Positions 45,628-52,788 of a stretch of 64,000 nt of DNA are shown piece after piece. The notes under the pieces were generated by a model, which did not search any database, was not told the origin of the DNA, and saw only the letters and a program-made list of their open reading frames with translations. The number at the start of each line of letters is the position of its first letter. Position 1 is the first letter of the stretch. This DNA is from Verrucomicrobiia bacterium (GTDB lineage: Bacteria; Verrucomicrobiota; Verrucomicrobiia; Palsa-1439): contig JBEKFI010000006.1 in assembly GCA_050013395.1 (NCBI GenBank), forward strand, positions 12,303 to 76,302, read 5' to 3'. Position numbers and translations under genes: made by a program.

Positions 45628-48600
45628 ATGAAACATTCTGACTTCGTCCATCTGCACCTGCACACCGAGTACAGCCTGCTCGATGGGGCGTGCCGCATTG
45701 ACGACGTGGTGGAGAAGGCGCACGCGGCAAAGATGCCGGCGGTGGCGATCACCGATCACGGCAACATGTACGGCGCGATCGATTTCTACAAGGCGGCGTC
45801 GGAACGCGGCATCAAACCGATCATCGGCTGCGAGGCGTACATCGCGCCGGGCAGCCGGCTCGACAAGAAATCCAGCAACGCGCGGGACGCGGCGTATCAT
45901 CTGGTGCTTCTGGCCAAGGACGAGGTCGGCTACAAGAATTTGATCAAGCTCATCACGGCGGCGCATCTCGAAGGGTTTTACTACAAACCGCGCATCGACA
46001 AGGAAATTCTGGCGCAACACGCGAAAGGGCTGATCGGGTTCACGTCCTGCCTCAAGGGCGAGGTGCCGAACAAGATCAAAGATGAGCAGATCGAACAGGC
46101 GAAGGCCGCGCTGGACGAGTACCGCCACATTTTCGAGCCGGGCGATTATTACGTCGAACTCCACAATCACGGGATTGAAGATCAACGAAAGGTCAATCGC
46201 GTGCTCATCGAATGGGCCAAGGAATTCAACCTGCCGCTTGTGGCGACCAACGACGTGCATTACATCGAGCGCAAGGATTGGGAGGCGCATGATTGCCTGA
46301 TTTGTTTACAGACGCAATCGCTGGTGGCCGACGAGAAGCGGATGCGGTACGCGGCCCAGCAGTTTTATCTGCGCACGCCGGAAGAGATGCACGAATTGTT
46401 CAAGGAGACACCGGAGGCGATCCGCAACACTCTGGCGGTCTCCGAGAAATGCAACGTGCTTCTGGAGTTCGGCAAACTTCGGTTTCCCGTTTATCAGCCG
46501 CCCGAGGGGTTGGGCCGCGAACAATACCTACGGCAGTTGTGCGAACAGGGATTGCGGGAACGCTATGGTATCGAATGGAAGAAACCGAAGTCCGAACAGG
46601 AAAAGGCCCTCATCGAACGGTTGGAATACGAACTGAAGGTGATCGAGAAGACCGGGTTCGCCAGTTATTTCCTGATCGTCTGGGACTTCGTACATTTCGC
46701 CAAGAGTAAAGCCATTCCGGTCGGACCGGGCCGCGGCAGCGCCGCAGGCAGTCTCGTGGCGTACCTGTTGCGCATCACCGACATCGATCCGTTGCGGTAC
46801 AACCTGCTATTCGAGCGGTTCCTCAATCCCGAGCGCGTGTCGCCGCCCGACATCGACATGGATTTCTGTTACAACCGGCGGCCCGAGGTCATCGATTACG
46901 TCCGCCACAAATACGGCAACGATCACGTGGCGCAGATCATCACGTTCGGCACGCTCGGCGCCAAGATGGTCGTGCGCGACGTGGGCCGCGTGCTGGGATT
47001 GAGCTACGGCGAATGCGACCGCATCGCGAAGATGATCCCACCCGACATCGGGATGACACTGGCGAAAGCGCTGGACATCAGTCCCGAACTCAAGAACGCC
47101 TATCAAAACGAAGACATGGTGCGGCGCGTGATCGGCTACGGGTTCACGCTCGAAGGTCTCGCGCGCAACGCCAGCACGCACGCGGCGGGCGTGGTCATCG
47201 GTGCCGAACCATTGATCAATGTCGTGCCCCTGACCACCGGGACGAACTCGAATGAAGTCGTCACGCAGTACTCGATGAACCCGCTTGGCGATCTCGGATT
47301 GCTGAAGATGGACTTCCTCGGGCTGAAAACGCTGACCGTCATCAAGGACGCGCTCGATCTCGTCGAGCAAACGACGGGCAAGCGCATCGACATCGACAAG
47401 ATTCCGCTCGACGACGCGAAGGCGTTCGACCTGCTCAACAAGGCCAATACTATCGGCGTGTTCCAGCTTGAATCACAGGGGATGCGCGATCTGTGCCGGC
47501 GCATTGGGGTGGACTCGATTGACGTGATCATCGCGCTGATCGCGCTGTTTCGTCCCGGGCCGATGAACATGCTCGACGATTACGTGAACCGCAAACACGC
47601 GAAGACGAAGGTCGAGTACGATCATCCGCTGCTGGAGCCGATCCTGAAGGAGACATTCGGCGTGTTCGTGTATCAGGAGCAGGTCATGCAGGCGGCCAAC
47701 GTGCTGGCGGGATACTCGCTCGGCGGCGCCGATATTCTGCGACGCGCAATGGGGAAGAAAAAGCCCGCCGAGATGGAGAAGCAGCGCGAGGTCTTCATCA
47801 AGGGTTGTCACGAGAAAAACAAAATCCCGCGCGGCAAAGCAGAGAGAATCTTCGAGACACTCGCCAAGTTTGCCGGGTACGGCTTCAACAAGTCGCACAG
47901 CGCGGCGTACGCGGTCGTCGCCTACCAGACCGCGTGGCTGAAGGCGAATTACCCGGTCGAGTTCATGGCGGCGTTGCTATCCAACGAACTGGCCAACACC
48001 GACAAAATCCGGCTTTTCATCAACGAATGCCGCCGCATGGGCATTGAAGTGTTGCCGCCCGACGTGAACCAGAGCGGCGTGCGGTTTACGGTGCATCTTC
48101 GCAGTGTGGGAGCGGCGTCCCCGCCGCGACCGGTGGCCGGGCCTGAGACAATCGCGGCGAGGACGCCGCTCCCACAAGACAAGGAGCCTACTAAAGCAAA
48201 ACATCATCAAGGCGCGCGACGCAGGCGGAAAACTCAAATCGTTCAGCGACTTCTGCGAGCGCGTGGACCTGCGCATGGTCAATCGCAAGGTGCTGGAAAG
48301 CTTGGTGAAGTGCGGCACGTTCGATTCGCTCGATCCGCAGCGCGCGCGGCTGTATGCGGAGATTGACTACCAGATGAATCGCGCCAGCAGCCTCCAACGC
48401 GACCGCGAACGCGGACAGGCAGCGCTGTTCGACGTCGAGCCGGTCAACGCGCGCAAACAGGCGACCGGTAAACCGCCCGAGGTCGAGTGGTCGCAAAGCG
48501 AGATGCTGGCGTTTGAGAAGGAACTGCTGGGCTTTTACGTCACAGGACACCCGTTGTCGCAATACGCGGACATCCTTCGTCGCTACGAGTTGGCGTCGTC

Positions 48601-49189
48601 GGCCCGGCTGGCCCAGTTGCAGGACGGGCAGACGACACGCATCGGCGGCATCGTCAGCAAACTGCAGCCGAAGATGACGAAACAGGGAAAACCGATGGCC
48701 ATCGTGACGTTGGAGGATTTGGATGGTTCAGTGGAAGTCCTGATCTTTCCCGAGGCGTACGCGAAGTGCTCGATCCATTTGCGCGCGGATGCTGCGATCT
48801 TTGTCTGCGGGACAGTCAATCTGCGCGAGGACAAGCCGAAGATTTTCGCCGACCATATCATTCCGCTCGACGAAGTCCCGAAGCGGTTCACCAAGGCCGT
48901 CCACATCCGCCTGCCCGCCGAGACGACCGAAGAAGCGGCGCTGACGCGCGTGCGGGAGGCGTTGCAAGCGCATCAAGGCAATGTGCCGGTGATGTTTTGC
49001 TTCATGTACGACGATGGCAAGCTGGTGTTCATCGAGACCCACGACAACTTTTTCGTTACGCCGTCAGAGGCGCTGGTGCAGGAACTGGAACGGATCCTCG
49101 GCGAAGACACCGTCTGGCTGAAGGTGGACACCGAGAAGATGGCCAACGGAAATGGCTCGCGTCAGGAGAGTCGGTTCGCCAAGGAGTGA
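45628..49189 (+). CDS. dnaE: DNA polymerase III alpha subunit, reading frame interrupted near 48100 by a palindromic element
   Basis: PHP domain start MKHSDFVHLHLHTEYSLLDG, polymerase core, YGFNKSHSAAY, an OB-fold region and a C-terminal domain. The N-terminal 912-aa ORF (45628..48366) and the C-terminal 361-aa ORF (48104..49189) are in different frames. Confidence 0.85.
48106..48175. repeat. RPE-like palindromic element (23-bp inverted termini) inside dnaE
   Basis: gtgggagcggcgtccccgccgcg-(24 nt)-cgcggcgaggacgccgctcccac. It occupies the position where the conserved HhH (GIGAIKGVG-type) motif is expected. Length 70 bp, so it shifts the frame by +1. Confidence 0.65.
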
Positions 49190-49228: not shown

Positions 49229-49783
49229 TCACTTGGGAATGATCAGCTTCTGACCGATTTTGATCTCGTTTGGATTGGAGATGTTGTTGGATTTCTTTAA
49301 ATCCTCAACCGATACGCCGTAGGCTTTGGCGATCGTGGTCAGAGTTTCGCCCTTGGCAACAACATGCTCCTTCCCTGCGCTGGTGGTGGCGCTTGCTGAT
49401 GTCGAGCCACCGGCCTTTTCGCCTGCTCGGGGCGGGTTCAAGGCGGCAATTTCCTTGGCGAGTTGATCGATGATCGCCTGTTTGTCCTTTTGTCGGGCGG
49501 CATCCAGCTCATCAACGCGTGCTTGGAGAGCTTGGAGATCGCTGGTGGACGCGCCGCCAGCAGAGCGGCGTAACGCCTGCAAATCCTCTTGGATTTTGGC
49601 GATGTCCTTTTGCATTTGCTGCTGTTTGAACTGCAGGTCTTCCACGTCGGCGCGCAAATGGCTCAGTTTCTCATCCAAGATATTCAGGCTCTCGGTGACA
49701 GTTTGCTGGGCCGCGAAGGGAGTCCCGATGGCTGACAAAATCACAGAAGCGACAAAAATGTGTGGGAGGATTCTCAATTTCAT
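49229..49783 (-). CDS. LysM-domain protein with signal peptide and coiled-coil region
   Basis: C-terminal LysM HVVAKGETLTTIAKAYGVSVEDLKKSNNISNPNEIKIGQKLIIP. Signal peptide at the N-terminus. Confidence 0.7.
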   Translation of the reverse strand: MKLRILPHIFVASVILSAIGTPFAAQQTVTESLNILDEKLSHLRADVEDLQFKQQQMQKDIAKIQEDLQALRRSAGGASTSDLQALQARVDELDAARQKDKQAIIDQLAKEIAALNPPRAGEKAGGSTSASATTSAGKEHVVAKGETLTTIAKAYGVSVEDLKKSNNISNPNEIKIGQKLIIPK

Positions 49784-50212
49784 ACGGCCAGTTTAGAAAG
49801 GGGCTTCAGCGGATGCAAGCTCGCTGTCGCATTTGGAGAAACGTTATAGAGCCGAGCGACGCACCCCGAAGGCATGTGAGCCTCGCGATTTGATTGATCG
49901 CGCCGTCGAAGTCTGCAAATACCGGAGAGAACCCATCCGATTAACGCAGGACGTACTGGATTTGGCTTGGGATGGGTATTTCGGCGCGTCTGTAAGTGGC
50001 TAACCCGCATATTTCACACGCCCGTGTGAAATATGCGCCCGCAGGGCCGACCCCGACACACAGAGTGTGTCGGCCTCGGGAGCGCCGCGCCCCCACGCGC
50101 GGCGCTCCCGAGGTGGACACTTCACGACTACCTACTGGCAGGTGTGAAATATCCAAGCTAAGCATTGGCAAAATTGACGGACGCGACTTAACCTGCTATA
50201 TAAGGAACACAA

Positions 50213-50272
50213 ATGAACGACAAAGGCCAACACAGCACAGCAGATCAGGCTTGGTTCTGGTTTTATTTTAGC
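50213..50272 (+). CDS. Attenuator leader peptide MNDKGQHSTADQAWFWFYF (6 consecutive aromatic codons)
   Basis: RBS taaggaacacaaATG. The 19-codon ORF ends in W-F-W-F-Y-F-stop. Followed by alternative hairpins and an intrinsic terminator immediately upstream of the DAHP synthase RBS. Confidence 0.5.
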
Positions 50273-50318
50273 CACGATCTGCGGGCGCTGTGTTGACGAC
50301 ACGGAAGCACACGTCAAA

Positions 50319-50349
50319 CCGTCCCGCAGACGCGGGGCGGTTTTTTTAT
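50319..50349 (+). terminator. Intrinsic terminator of the aromatic attenuator (ccgtcccgc-aga-cgcggggcgg + TTTTTTTAT)
   Basis: 9-bp GC stem followed by a 7-T run, 44 nt upstream of the DAHP synthase ATG. Confidence 0.6.
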
Positions 50350-50392
50350 TGCCCGTGACCGTCCCGCCGAGGCGGGGACGAAGGAGCGAACG

Positions 50393-51418
50393 ATGATCAT
50401 CATAATGAAAACAGGGAGAACGGGGCAGGAGATTCAACAGGTGGTGGATGCAGTAAAACAATTCGGTTACGAGCCTAAACTGATCCGCGGCGTCGAGCGC
50501 ACTGTCGTTGCCTGCGTCGGCGACGAGCGCAACCATCACACGCTGGAATCTCTTATCGTGTTGCCACAGGTCGAAAGCGTGATGCCGGTCCAGAAGCGGT
50601 ACAAGCTGGTCAGTCGCGAATACCAGCCTCAGGACAGCATTCTCGACGTCTGCGGCCTCAAGATCGGCGGTGACACTTTTCACGTCATCGCCGGGCCGTG
50701 TTCGGTCGAAACCCAGGAGCAGACTTTGGAAACCGCGAAAGCGGTGAAGTCGTACGGCGGCACACTGTTTCGCGGCGGCGCATTCAAACCGCGCACCTCG
50801 CCGTACGACTTCCAAGGTCTGGGCCGCGACGGACTGGAAATGTTGAGGCAGGCCCGCGCCGCCACCGGGCTACCTATTGTCACCGAAGTCATGTCGCCGC
50901 AGGATGTGGACATGGTAGCCGAGATTGCCGACGTGCTGCAGATCGGCGCGCGCAACGCGCAGAACGTTCCGCTGCTCGCCGCCGCCGCCGCTTCCGGCAA
51001 AACGATCCTCCTCAAGCGCGGCATGTCGAGTTTCATCGACGAATGGCTGCTCGCCGCTGAATACATCTGCGTGCAGGGTAACAGCAAGGTCATCCTCTGC
51101 GAACGCGGCATCCGCACCTTCGAGCACGCCTGCCGCAACACGCTCGACATCAGCGCCGTCGCCGTGGCGAAAAAGGAAACACATCTGCCCGTGTTCGTCG
51201 ATCCGAGTCACGCGGCGGGCCGCTACGACATGGTCATTCCGCTGGCCCGCGCCGCCGTGGCCGCGGGAGCGGACGGCTTGCTCGTCGAAGTGCATCCCAA
51301 TCCTGCCGTCGCCCTCAGCGACGGCGGCCAACAACTCAAACCGAAACAGTTCGGTCAACTGATGTCCGAAATCCGTCCGCTGGTTGAGGTGATGGGCAAA
51401 AAACTAGGCGGAGAGTGA
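50393..51418 (+). CDS. 3-deoxy-7-phosphoheptulonate (DAHP) synthase, class I-beta with N-terminal regulatory domain
   Basis: KDO8PS/DAHPS I-beta core (GPCSVE, KPRTSPY, GARN, DPSH) preceded by an ACT/FL-like extension of about 80 aa. Confidence 0.8.
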   Translation: MIIIMKTGRTGQEIQQVVDAVKQFGYEPKLIRGVERTVVACVGDERNHHTLESLIVLPQVESVMPVQKRYKLVSREYQPQDSILDVCGLKIGGDTFHVIAGPCSVETQEQTLETAKAVKSYGGTLFRGGAFKPRTSPYDFQGLGRDGLEMLRQARAATGLPIVTEVMSPQDVDMVAEIADVLQIGARNAQNVPLLAAAAASGKTILLKRGMSSFIDEWLLAAEYICVQGNSKVILCERGIRTFEHACRNTLDISAVAVAKKETHLPVFVDPSHAAGRYDMVIPLARAAVAAGADGLLVEVHPNPAVALSDGGQQLKPKQFGQLMSEIRPLVEVMGKKLGGE

Positions 51419-52615: not shown

Positions 52616-52624
52616 CTCGGCCGG

Positions 52625-52788
52625 CAGTGGCGGCGGGAGCGGACGGCTTGCTCGTCGAAGTGCATCCCAACCCTGCAGTGGCGCTGAGCGACGGCGGCCA
52701 ACAACTCAAACCGAAACAGTTCGGTCAGCTAATGTCGGAAATCCGTCCCTTGGTGGAAGTGATGGGTAAACAACTCGGCGGAGCGTAA
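52625..52788 (+). repeat. Diverged duplicate of the DAHP synthase 3' end (last ~55 codons + stop)
   Basis: About 88% nt and 95% aa identity to 51255..51418. Encodes AGADGLLVEVHPNPAVALSDGGQQLKPKQFGQLMSEIRPLVEVMGKQLGGA*. Confidence 0.8.

Follow-up and report, generated by a model that had tools for sequence, protein, structure and literature searches.

A putative leader-peptide attenuator with a mixed Trp/Phe/Tyr codon run preceding a class I-beta DAHP synthase gene in the Verrucomicrobiota

The 64,000-nt stretch of contig JBEKFI010000006.1 analysed here (the window), from a bacterium of the class Verrucomicrobiia, carries a gene for 3-deoxy-D-arabino-heptulosonate 7-phosphate (DAHP) synthase, the first committed enzyme of the aromatic pathway, preceded by a short open reading frame (ORF) with a run of aromatic codons and by an intrinsic terminator. 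This arrangement raises the question of whether transcription of the gene is controlled by ribosomes translating the short ORF and, if so, which amino acids are sensed. The combined evidence indicates that the element is very probably a ribosome-mediated leader-peptide transcription attenuator acting on a monocistronic class I-beta DAHP synthase gene, as proposed in an earlier note made from the sequence of this locus. This reading is based on the mutually exclusive folds of the leader RNA, on the conservation of reading frame, aromatic codon run, promoter, antiterminator and terminator in 15 verrucomicrobial relatives, and on a family-wide enrichment of aromatic leaders upstream of DAHP synthase genes (42/80 loci). 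The features of the locus are collected in Table 1.

Table 1. Features of the leader region and the DAHP synthase gene, in window coordinates.
Feature	Position	Strand	Details and basis
Predicted sigma-70-type promoter	50174..50202	+	-35 TTGACG 50174-79; 17-nt spacer; TGc extended -10 at 50194-96; -10 TATATA 50197-50202; sequence reading and comparison with relatives
Leader ORF, MNDKGQHSTADQAWFWFYFSHDLRALC followed by stop	50213..50296	+	27 codons and stop (TGA 50294-96); translation
Regulatory codons Trp-Phe-Trp-Phe-Tyr-Phe	50252..50269	+	TGG TTC TGG TTT TAT TTT; apical loop of the 1:2 hairpin
Segment 1, 5' strands of the anti-antiterminator	50228..50251	+	CAACACAGC 50228-36, GCAGATC 50240-46, GGCT 50248-51; minimum free energy folds
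Segment 2, 3' strands of the 1:2 hairpin	50270..50295	+	AGCC 50270-73, GATCTGC 50276-82, GCTGTGTTG 50287-95
Small hairpin TTGACG/CGTCAA	50293..50317	+	TTGACG 50293-98, CGTCAA 50312-17; nested in the antiterminator loop (the '2:3' hairpin of the earlier note)
Segment 3, antiterminator 3' strand (CG-T-CCCGCAGA)	50320..50330	+	shares 50320-27 with the terminator 5' arm
Intrinsic terminator	50316..50347	+	12-bp stem AAACCGTCCCGC/GCGGGGCGGTTT 50316-27/50332-43, loop AGAC; -21.6 kcal/mol; seven T at 50341-47
Second hairpin (CGTCCCGCC/GGCGGGACG-like, 9 bp)	50360..50380	+	near-copy of the terminator stem, no T-run; fold
Shine-Dalgarno AAGGAG of the DAHP synthase gene	50381..50386	+	sequence
Class I-beta DAHP synthase, N-terminal ferredoxin-like regulatory domain	50393..51418	+	monocistronic here; Pfam and PDB matches

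Leader peptide and alternative RNA folds

The product of the gene downstream of the leader presents a DAHP_synth_1 barrel (PF00793, E 5e-82) preceded by an N-terminal DAHP_snth_FXD domain (PF18152, E 3.5e-18), and matches over its full length (residues 1-338, E 1e-109) the structures PDB 1RZM and 3PG9, which we take to be the Thermotoga maritima enzyme. These matches uphold its earlier identification as a class I-beta DAHP synthase and place it in the T. maritima type of that class. Its closest database homologues are 3-deoxy-7-phosphoheptulonate synthases from Verrucomicrobiota metagenome bins.

The leader ORF encodes a peptide of 27 residues in which the six aromatic codons are consecutive and in frame (WFWFYF, with FYF at codons 17-19). 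No other run of at least four Trp, Phe or Tyr codons occurs in any of the six frames of the 64-kb window, where 5.9% of codons are aromatic and runs of at least six have a chance expectation of 0.005 per window. The earlier note had correctly located the ATG and the six aromatic codons, but had read a leader of 19 codons stopping after the last Phe; the TAG in question (50269-71) is out of frame, and in-frame translation continues to the TGA. At the sequence level, a short ORF with clustered end-product codons lies before a biosynthetic gene.

The free leader RNA (50200-50395) has a predicted minimum free energy (MFE) of -77.3 kcal/mol (z = -4.1 versus dinucleotide shuffles), in a structure composed of the terminator and a long hairpin between segments 1 and 2 (the 1:2 hairpin, or anti-antiterminator). 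This hairpin (50228-50295, -31.7 kcal/mol alone) comprises three helices, in which CAACACAGC pairs with GCTGTGTTG, GCAGATC with GATCTGC and GGCT with AGCC. It presents the aromatic codons at its apex and the leader stop codon in its 3' strand, inside segment 2, and the extent to which a translating ribosome would cover each strand was estimated from standard footprint sizes. Segment 2 also holds, overlapping the strands of the 1:2 hairpin, the 5' strand of an alternative helix in which TCTGCGGGCG (50278-87) pairs with CGTCCCGCAGA (50320-30), with T50322 bulged. The core of this helix can be written as TCTGCGGG(CG), where TCTGCGGG spans 50278-85, against (CG-T)CCCGCAGA. When segment 1 is withheld, as if occupied by a ribosome, and the transcript is truncated ahead of the terminator 3' arm, the alternative fold becomes the MFE structure, at -22.5 kcal/mol, a stability similar to that of the terminator. 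In these models the 50278-87/50320-30 pairing is the true antiterminator, because it consumes positions 50320-27 of the terminator 5' arm. The terminator is located between the leader ORF and the DAHP synthase gene, and transcription would end 44 nt before the latter.

Several of these structures had been anticipated. The complementarity of CCAACACAGC (50227-36) with GCTGTGTTG was confirmed, and the canonical intrinsic terminator was recovered, with its stem, AGAC loop and T-run, both by folding and by a promoter/terminator scan. Alternative, mutually exclusive structures were also found on folding, as suggested, but the antiterminator pairing is not the one that the earlier note had put forward. 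The TTGACG and CGTCAA strands that it had assigned to this role are indeed complementary, but the hairpin that they form shares with the terminator no more than its two basal A-U pairs. It can exist alongside a terminator of 10 bp (-24.3 kcal/mol for both) and was rejected as antiterminator. The folding energies suggest that it is likely a nested stabiliser of the antiterminator, which has -14.0 kcal/mol alone and -21.6 kcal/mol together with the nested hairpin.

From these elements we infer a switch for which the following transcription start, ribosome positions, timing and physiological response would be expected. The strong promoter would start the transcript a few nucleotides before the leader ATG, and the 27-codon ORF would be leaderless or nearly so. 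With charged tRNA-Trp, tRNA-Phe and tRNA-Tyr plentiful, the ribosome would reach the TGA, with a footprint (approximately 50278-50308) over the 5' strand of the antiterminator; upon its release, segment 1 would capture segment 2 in the 1:2 hairpin and the terminator would form, ending transcription at approximately 50345. Slow reading at any of the six aromatic codons would leave a stalled ribosome over segment 1 and the hairpin apex, with the 3' edge of its footprint at approximately 50265-50282 and TCTGCGGGCG wholly or mostly free for segment 3 as it emerges. The pairing of TCTGCGGGCG with CGTCCCGCAGA, aided by the nested hairpin, would precede the 3' arm of the terminator and result in read-through into the DAHP synthase gene. 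If the ORF were not translated, the 1:2 hairpin and the terminator would both form, leading to termination.

The terminator stem has also been copied 40 nt downstream, as a direct repeat (50318-37/50358-77, 90%, ACCGTCCCGC.G..GCGGGG). The resulting second hairpin abuts the Shine-Dalgarno sequence of the DAHP synthase gene, ending one base into that region, and occurs in the closest relatives only.

Conservation and translation start among verrucomicrobial relatives

Upstream regions of relatives were gathered through scans of genome and metagenome contigs and through look-ups of close DAHP synthase homologues, yielding 15 distinct verrucomicrobial sequences with the element, whose DAHP synthases are 78-98% identical. 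All 15 present an ATG and an in-frame TGA embedded in GTGTTGA, at distances of 75, 78, 81, 84, 87 or 96 nt, all of them multiples of three. The aromatic codon run, the persistence of which in related genomes had been proposed as a check on the attenuator, is kept in all of them. The runs (WFWFYF, WYWFYF, SYYWFYF, WYYFYF, WFYYF, GFYYF, GFYF and others) have Phe-Tyr-Phe as their invariant part and include Trp in 13/15 cases, and their variation is either synonymous (TTC/TTT, TAT/TAC) or replaces one aromatic residue with another.

The RNA folds are conserved to a similar extent. The terminator is present in 15/15 relatives, with 98% of its positions paired, and in every relative the antiterminator is the MFE structure once segment 1 is masked. 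Per-sequence folds assign to the 1:2 hairpin energies between -27 and -44 kcal/mol and place its formation ahead of transcription of the terminator arm (15/15). The antiterminator with its nested hairpin is 93% paired, as opposed to 34-47% with slid partners. Pairing is 92% for segment 3 and 95% for the nested TTGACG/CGTCAA hairpin, where four sequences present a CG-to-UA compensatory double change; the three helices of the 1:2 hairpin are paired in 84%, 78% and 65% of cases, with several double changes. RNAalifold, applied to a MAFFT alignment, recovered the terminator and part of the long-range 1:2 helix, and nothing more, because segment 1 is poorly aligned.

Besides the aromatic run, the leader peptides share two conserved blocks, QHS (encoded by CAACACAGC) and a C-terminal LRALC adjacent to the stop codon (CTGCGGGCGCTGTGTTGA), and it could be argued on these grounds that the aromatic run and the LRALC C-terminus arrest the ribosome in response to a free amino acid, in the manner of TnaC. 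Both blocks, however, coincide with RNA strands that are partners of one another or of segment 3, so the conservation of the peptide is explained at the RNA level, and synonymous positions are conserved as well. Induction by excess product would furthermore be of the wrong sign for a biosynthetic enzyme, and the locus possesses a canonical Rho-independent terminator together with an antiterminator. The probability that we assign to nascent-peptide arrest is hence next to negligible.

Upstream of the leader, all 15 relatives present the promoter pattern TTGACN, a 17-nt spacer (18 nt in one of them) and TANNNN, accompanied in 10 of the 15 by a TGN extended -10 element. The -10 box and the leader ATG are separated by only 7-13 nt (15/15). 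Assuming a transcription start 6-8 nt past the -10 box, the 5' untranslated region would measure 0-6 nt across the relatives; in the window, the transcript would start near 50209, approximately 4 nt before the ATG, with an untranslated region of about 2-5 nt. The Shine-Dalgarno-like sequence before the leader ORF is peculiar to the window, having disappeared in a 98%-identical relative (L087) and in all others; the tally of such sequences is 2/15 for the leader ORF, in contrast with 14/15 for the DAHP synthase gene. The ribosome-binding site 'aaggaa' (50202-07) invoked in the earlier note is hence not sustained: it abuts or overlaps the predicted -10 box and is not conserved. Given the 7-13 nt spacing and the lack of a conserved Shine-Dalgarno sequence, the leader ORF is most likely translated from a leaderless or near-leaderless mRNA, and the distance between promoter and ATG amounts to a prediction of leaderless translation in the Verrucomicrobiota.

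Distribution across DAHP synthase loci and known attenuators

A search of the 300 nt upstream of DAHP synthase genes for ORFs 8-45 codons long, in which four or more residues per window of six are aromatic, identified such leaders in 42/80 genome loci, compared to 0/80 on the reverse complement and a mean of 2.2 (maximum 6) in dinucleotide shuffles. Classified by record title, the positives were distributed as 35/49 in the Acidobacteriota, 4/13 in the Verrucomicrobiota and 3/18 in other groups. Across all loci with enough upstream sequence, aromatic leaders were detected in 93/165, mostly from the Acidobacteriota and the Verrucomicrobiota, and 90 of the 93 present a hairpin and a T-run downstream of the ORF, typically 20-60 nt before the gene. 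Several further Verrucomicrobiota loci fall below the stringent threshold, with weaker YF or FYF leaders.

In the Acidobacteriota (Bryobacterales, Terriglobia and others; many loci within L010-L079 and L109-L160) the aromatic leaders lie approximately 90-230 nt before the DAHP synthase start, with a hairpin and T-run after them, and encode peptides such as ...SFSFRFWRF, ...FRYWF and ...YYWFRF..., and three Opitutia loci (L043, L044 and L054) encode leaders of the form ...F(W/S)FIFRSPDAQSG... A covariance model built from the 15 verrucomicrobial sequences finds a single copy in the window and yields marginal scores of 17-30 bits at distant verrucomicrobial and acidobacterial loci, always correctly positioned and oriented upstream of DAHP synthase. 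The acidobacterial SFRFW-type leaders may or may not share common descent with the window element.

These data also bear on the notion that the hairpin and T-run are merely the terminator of a co-directional upstream gene, or a general insulator, and that the aromatic ORF arose by chance. In most relatives a gene of 447 amino acids on the same strand does end approximately 210 nt before the DAHP synthase gene, and the terminator could therefore also stop its read-through. In the window, however, only a 68-codon remnant of this gene is retained, and a conserved promoter lies between the remnant and the leader ORF. The frame of the ORF, its aromatic run and the antiterminator are all conserved, the run being of a length scarcely expected by chance in the window, and the reverse complement yields no aromatic ORFs and shuffled sequences only a few. 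A terminator with an accidental ORF is thus extremely unlikely.

Riboswitches and T-boxes likewise act through alternative terminator and antiterminator folds, and the aromatic genes of Firmicutes are under T-box or TRAP control, which makes it conceivable that the leader is an RNA switch responding to a bound ligand or protein (as in riboswitches, T-boxes or TRAP-like sites) for which translation of the ORF is irrelevant. Searches at Rfam gathering scores, however, returned no family in the window or in the loci of 19 verrucomicrobial and acidobacterial relatives, and riboswitch and T-box families gave no match in 49500-51000 even at E values up to 10. The sub-threshold Rfam matches (rnk_pseudo, Phe_leader, ncS54 and RNAI) all rest on the terminator hairpin; among them, Phe_leader (RF01859) reached 17.8 bits in the window against a gathering score of 55, and the Rfam search gave no match in the window to Trp_leader (RF00513). 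The sequence shows neither a specifier or other T-box elements nor a GAG/UAG repeat array, and the multiple-of-three indels and the synonymous variation of the leader argue for translation. We hence deem a switch independent of translation very improbable.

The element resembles the E. coli trpL and pheL attenuators (RF00513 and RF01859) in its short ORF with tandem end-product codons, in its 1:2, 2:3 and 3:4 hairpins, in the location of an intrinsic terminator shortly before the biosynthetic gene and in a stop codon placed for a terminating ribosome to block the antiterminator. It shares no sequence or structure homology with them, however, and differs in that its codons mix three amino acids and are located in the loop that joins segments 1 and 2 at the hairpin apex, that its ORF is probably leaderless, that its target is the entry enzyme of the common pathway instead of a terminal branch, and that it occurs in the Verrucomicrobiota.

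A functional analogy can also be drawn with Corynebacterium glutamicum, whose DAHP synthase is not known to be of the Thermotoga-like I-beta type with a ferredoxin-like domain. As summarised in two reports, the C. glutamicum leader aroR, with a Phe-Tyr-Phe sequence, lies directly upstream of the DAHP synthase gene aroF (PMC11802643, PMC7356990), and stalling under aromatic limitation raises read-through, Phe limitation being effective and Tyr limitation not (PMC11802643). The likeness consists of an FYF leader before a DAHP synthase gene, FYF being invariant in the 15 verrucomicrobial relatives; aroR belongs to another phylum, the Actinomycetota, and the window leader adds Trp codons, for a total of six aromatic codons in a row.

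Another counterpart was found in Photobacterium sp. BZF1 (L063, 2739-2831), where a Trp_leader (RF00513) match of 43 bits (gathering score 41) lies directly before a class I-beta DAHP synthase gene orthologous to that of the window (52% identity). The leader there (MVQQIHRQLRAFSSWWWHFPTRVV, ...AFSSWWWHF) points to a Trp-specific attenuator on an I-beta DAHP synthase in a gammaproteobacterium. The Photobacterium element belongs, however, to the proteobacterial Trp_leader family and has a Trp-only run, while the verrucomicrobial element has no match to that model. In view of aroR-aroF and of the Photobacterium match, the earlier note overstated how unusual attenuation of a DAHP synthase gene is.

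With regard to its start, the leader is akin to the leaderless polycysteine ORFs of mycobacteria (bioRxiv 10.1101/834739), which are short ORFs at or next to the transcript 5' end without a Shine-Dalgarno sequence. These actinobacterial attenuators concern another amino acid and another phylum, and the leaderless status of the window ORF is predicted from promoter-ATG spacing. A literature search, outside of which subscription-only papers fell, did not turn up any account of such leaders in Verrucomicrobia or Acidobacteria; within the same bounds, looking for attenuator surveys that name DAHP synthase yielded only the reports on C. glutamicum aroR.

The composition of the run makes joint sensing of Trp, Phe and Tyr by the window leader plausible. 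The same attenuator might, alternatively, report the charging of Phe only (perhaps also of Tyr), with little contribution from the Trp codons. Phe-Tyr-Phe is indeed the sole invariant part of the run, and two of the 15 relatives (L169 and L172) lack a Trp codon. Yet the other 13 retain Trp, as one or two codons in the opening part of the run, and a stall at the first Trp codon is predicted to free the whole antiterminator strand and to give the most stable antiterminator fold (-22.5 kcal/mol, compared to -17.5 kcal/mol when the ribosome halts at the last codon). Trp is, in addition, normally the scarcest amino acid. The aroR report favours Phe, in that read-through rose under Phe limitation and Tyr was without effect (PMC11802643). 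On balance we consider sensing restricted to Phe rather unlikely.

Several observations weigh against the attenuator reading, or against parts of it. When the full-length leader is folded at equilibrium, the terminator prevails no matter which part is masked, and the switch must therefore be kinetic and co-transcriptional. Masking a 29-nt ribosome footprint over each of the aromatic codons in turn never displaced the terminator from these equilibrium folds, which cannot test a kinetic switch and were discarded for this purpose. In several relatives, at the stage at which the terminator arm and loop have emerged, the MFE favours the antiterminator by 0.3-6 kcal/mol without any ribosome, and the off state would therefore rely on persistence of the 1:2 hairpin formed earlier. 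The antiterminator and terminator strands are nearly invariant, covariation is sparse and the sequences are related, and shuffle controls for pairing are borderline (5-11 of 500); because of this near invariance, the pair counts across the aligned relatives reflect conserved pairing potential more than covariation. The leader and the terminator are both absent from two relatives with approximately 79% identical DAHP synthases (L170 and L171), which indicates that the attenuator is dispensable and has been lost or gained within the clade.

The transcription start, for its part, is deduced from promoter position, and the consensus-based promoter/terminator scan made no call of the leader promoter, because its -10 box ends in A. 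In aroR, Tyr limitation was without effect (PMC11802643), so a leader may contain a codon without sensing its amino acid. Lastly, the source organism is known from metagenomes only. The mutually exclusive folds, the conservation of the element in the 15 relatives and the enrichment of aromatic leaders nevertheless leave ribosome-mediated attenuation as the strongly favoured reading.

Gene neighbourhood and significance

In the two relatives without the element, the spacer between the upstream gene and the DAHP synthase gene is reduced to 33-36 nt (L170 1468-1500; L171 1465-1500), and a promoter-like TTGAC remains. The upstream gene of approximately 447 amino acids is present ahead of the leader in L165-L169, and it is also present in L171. 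Its 68-codon 3' remnant in the window (49797-50003, plus strand; ...ACEPRDLIDRAVEVCKY...WDGYFGASVSG followed by stop) is co-directional with the leader, the rest having been deleted up to a divergent LysM gene (49229-49783, minus strand). Three GC-rich palindromes (50005-50125) occupy the region between the remnant and the leader promoter, with arms such as 50067-90/50097-120 (92% complementary), and present a sub-threshold match to the sbcD RNA model (25 bits versus 40). A similar palindrome (GTGGGAGCGGCGTCC...GGACGCCGCTCCCAC, approximately 48103-48175) is located in dnaE, exactly at a switch of frame from the ORF at 45628-48366 to the ORF at 48104-49189. These palindromes may be an element akin to repetitive extragenic palindromes (REP) or miniature inverted-repeat transposable elements (MITE), or may reflect a problem with the assembly, or a frameshift problem, in dnaE, which is an essential gene.

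Downstream of the leader, the final 163 nt of the DAHP synthase gene (51254-51416) are repeated with 89% identity 1,370 nt further on (52624-52786), the two copies flanking a PaaX-family regulator gene on the minus strand (PF20803 and PF08223; 51487-52275). Most relatives have a convergent LptF/LptG gene directly after the DAHP synthase gene, and L168 also has a PaaX-like gene there. The repeat looks like an insertion or recombination scar.

In the Thermotoga enzyme, Tyr and Phe act as allosteric inhibitors through the ferredoxin-like domain. By analogy, transcriptional and allosteric control would act together on the DAHP synthase described here.

The advance made here is one of distribution and annotation, not of concept. 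The principle is classical; novelty lies in the phylum, in a family that lacks annotation, in the six-codon run mixing Trp, Phe and Tyr, and in the probable leaderless start. Attenuation of DAHP synthase appears to be common with the Thermotoga-type enzyme (93/165 loci). We tentatively suggest that the window element may be a member of a large, undescribed set of attenuators outside Rfam, probably leaderless and associated with I-beta DAHP synthases in the Verrucomicrobiota and the Acidobacteriota, in which one peptide integrates how far up to three different tRNAs (Trp, Phe, Tyr) are charged. If so, these leaders would constitute multi-input attenuators gating entry into the aromatic pathway, unlike textbook designs that respond to one amino acid. 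As the element is absent from Rfam, annotation pipelines miss it, and a family could be founded on the present alignment and covariance model. With its mixture of Trp, Phe and Tyr codons, the run provides a natural system for multi-signal integration by a single leader. For the Verrucomicrobiota and, by extension, many Acidobacteriota, groups with almost no characterised gene regulation, the locus offers a testable mechanism for control of the first committed aromatic step.

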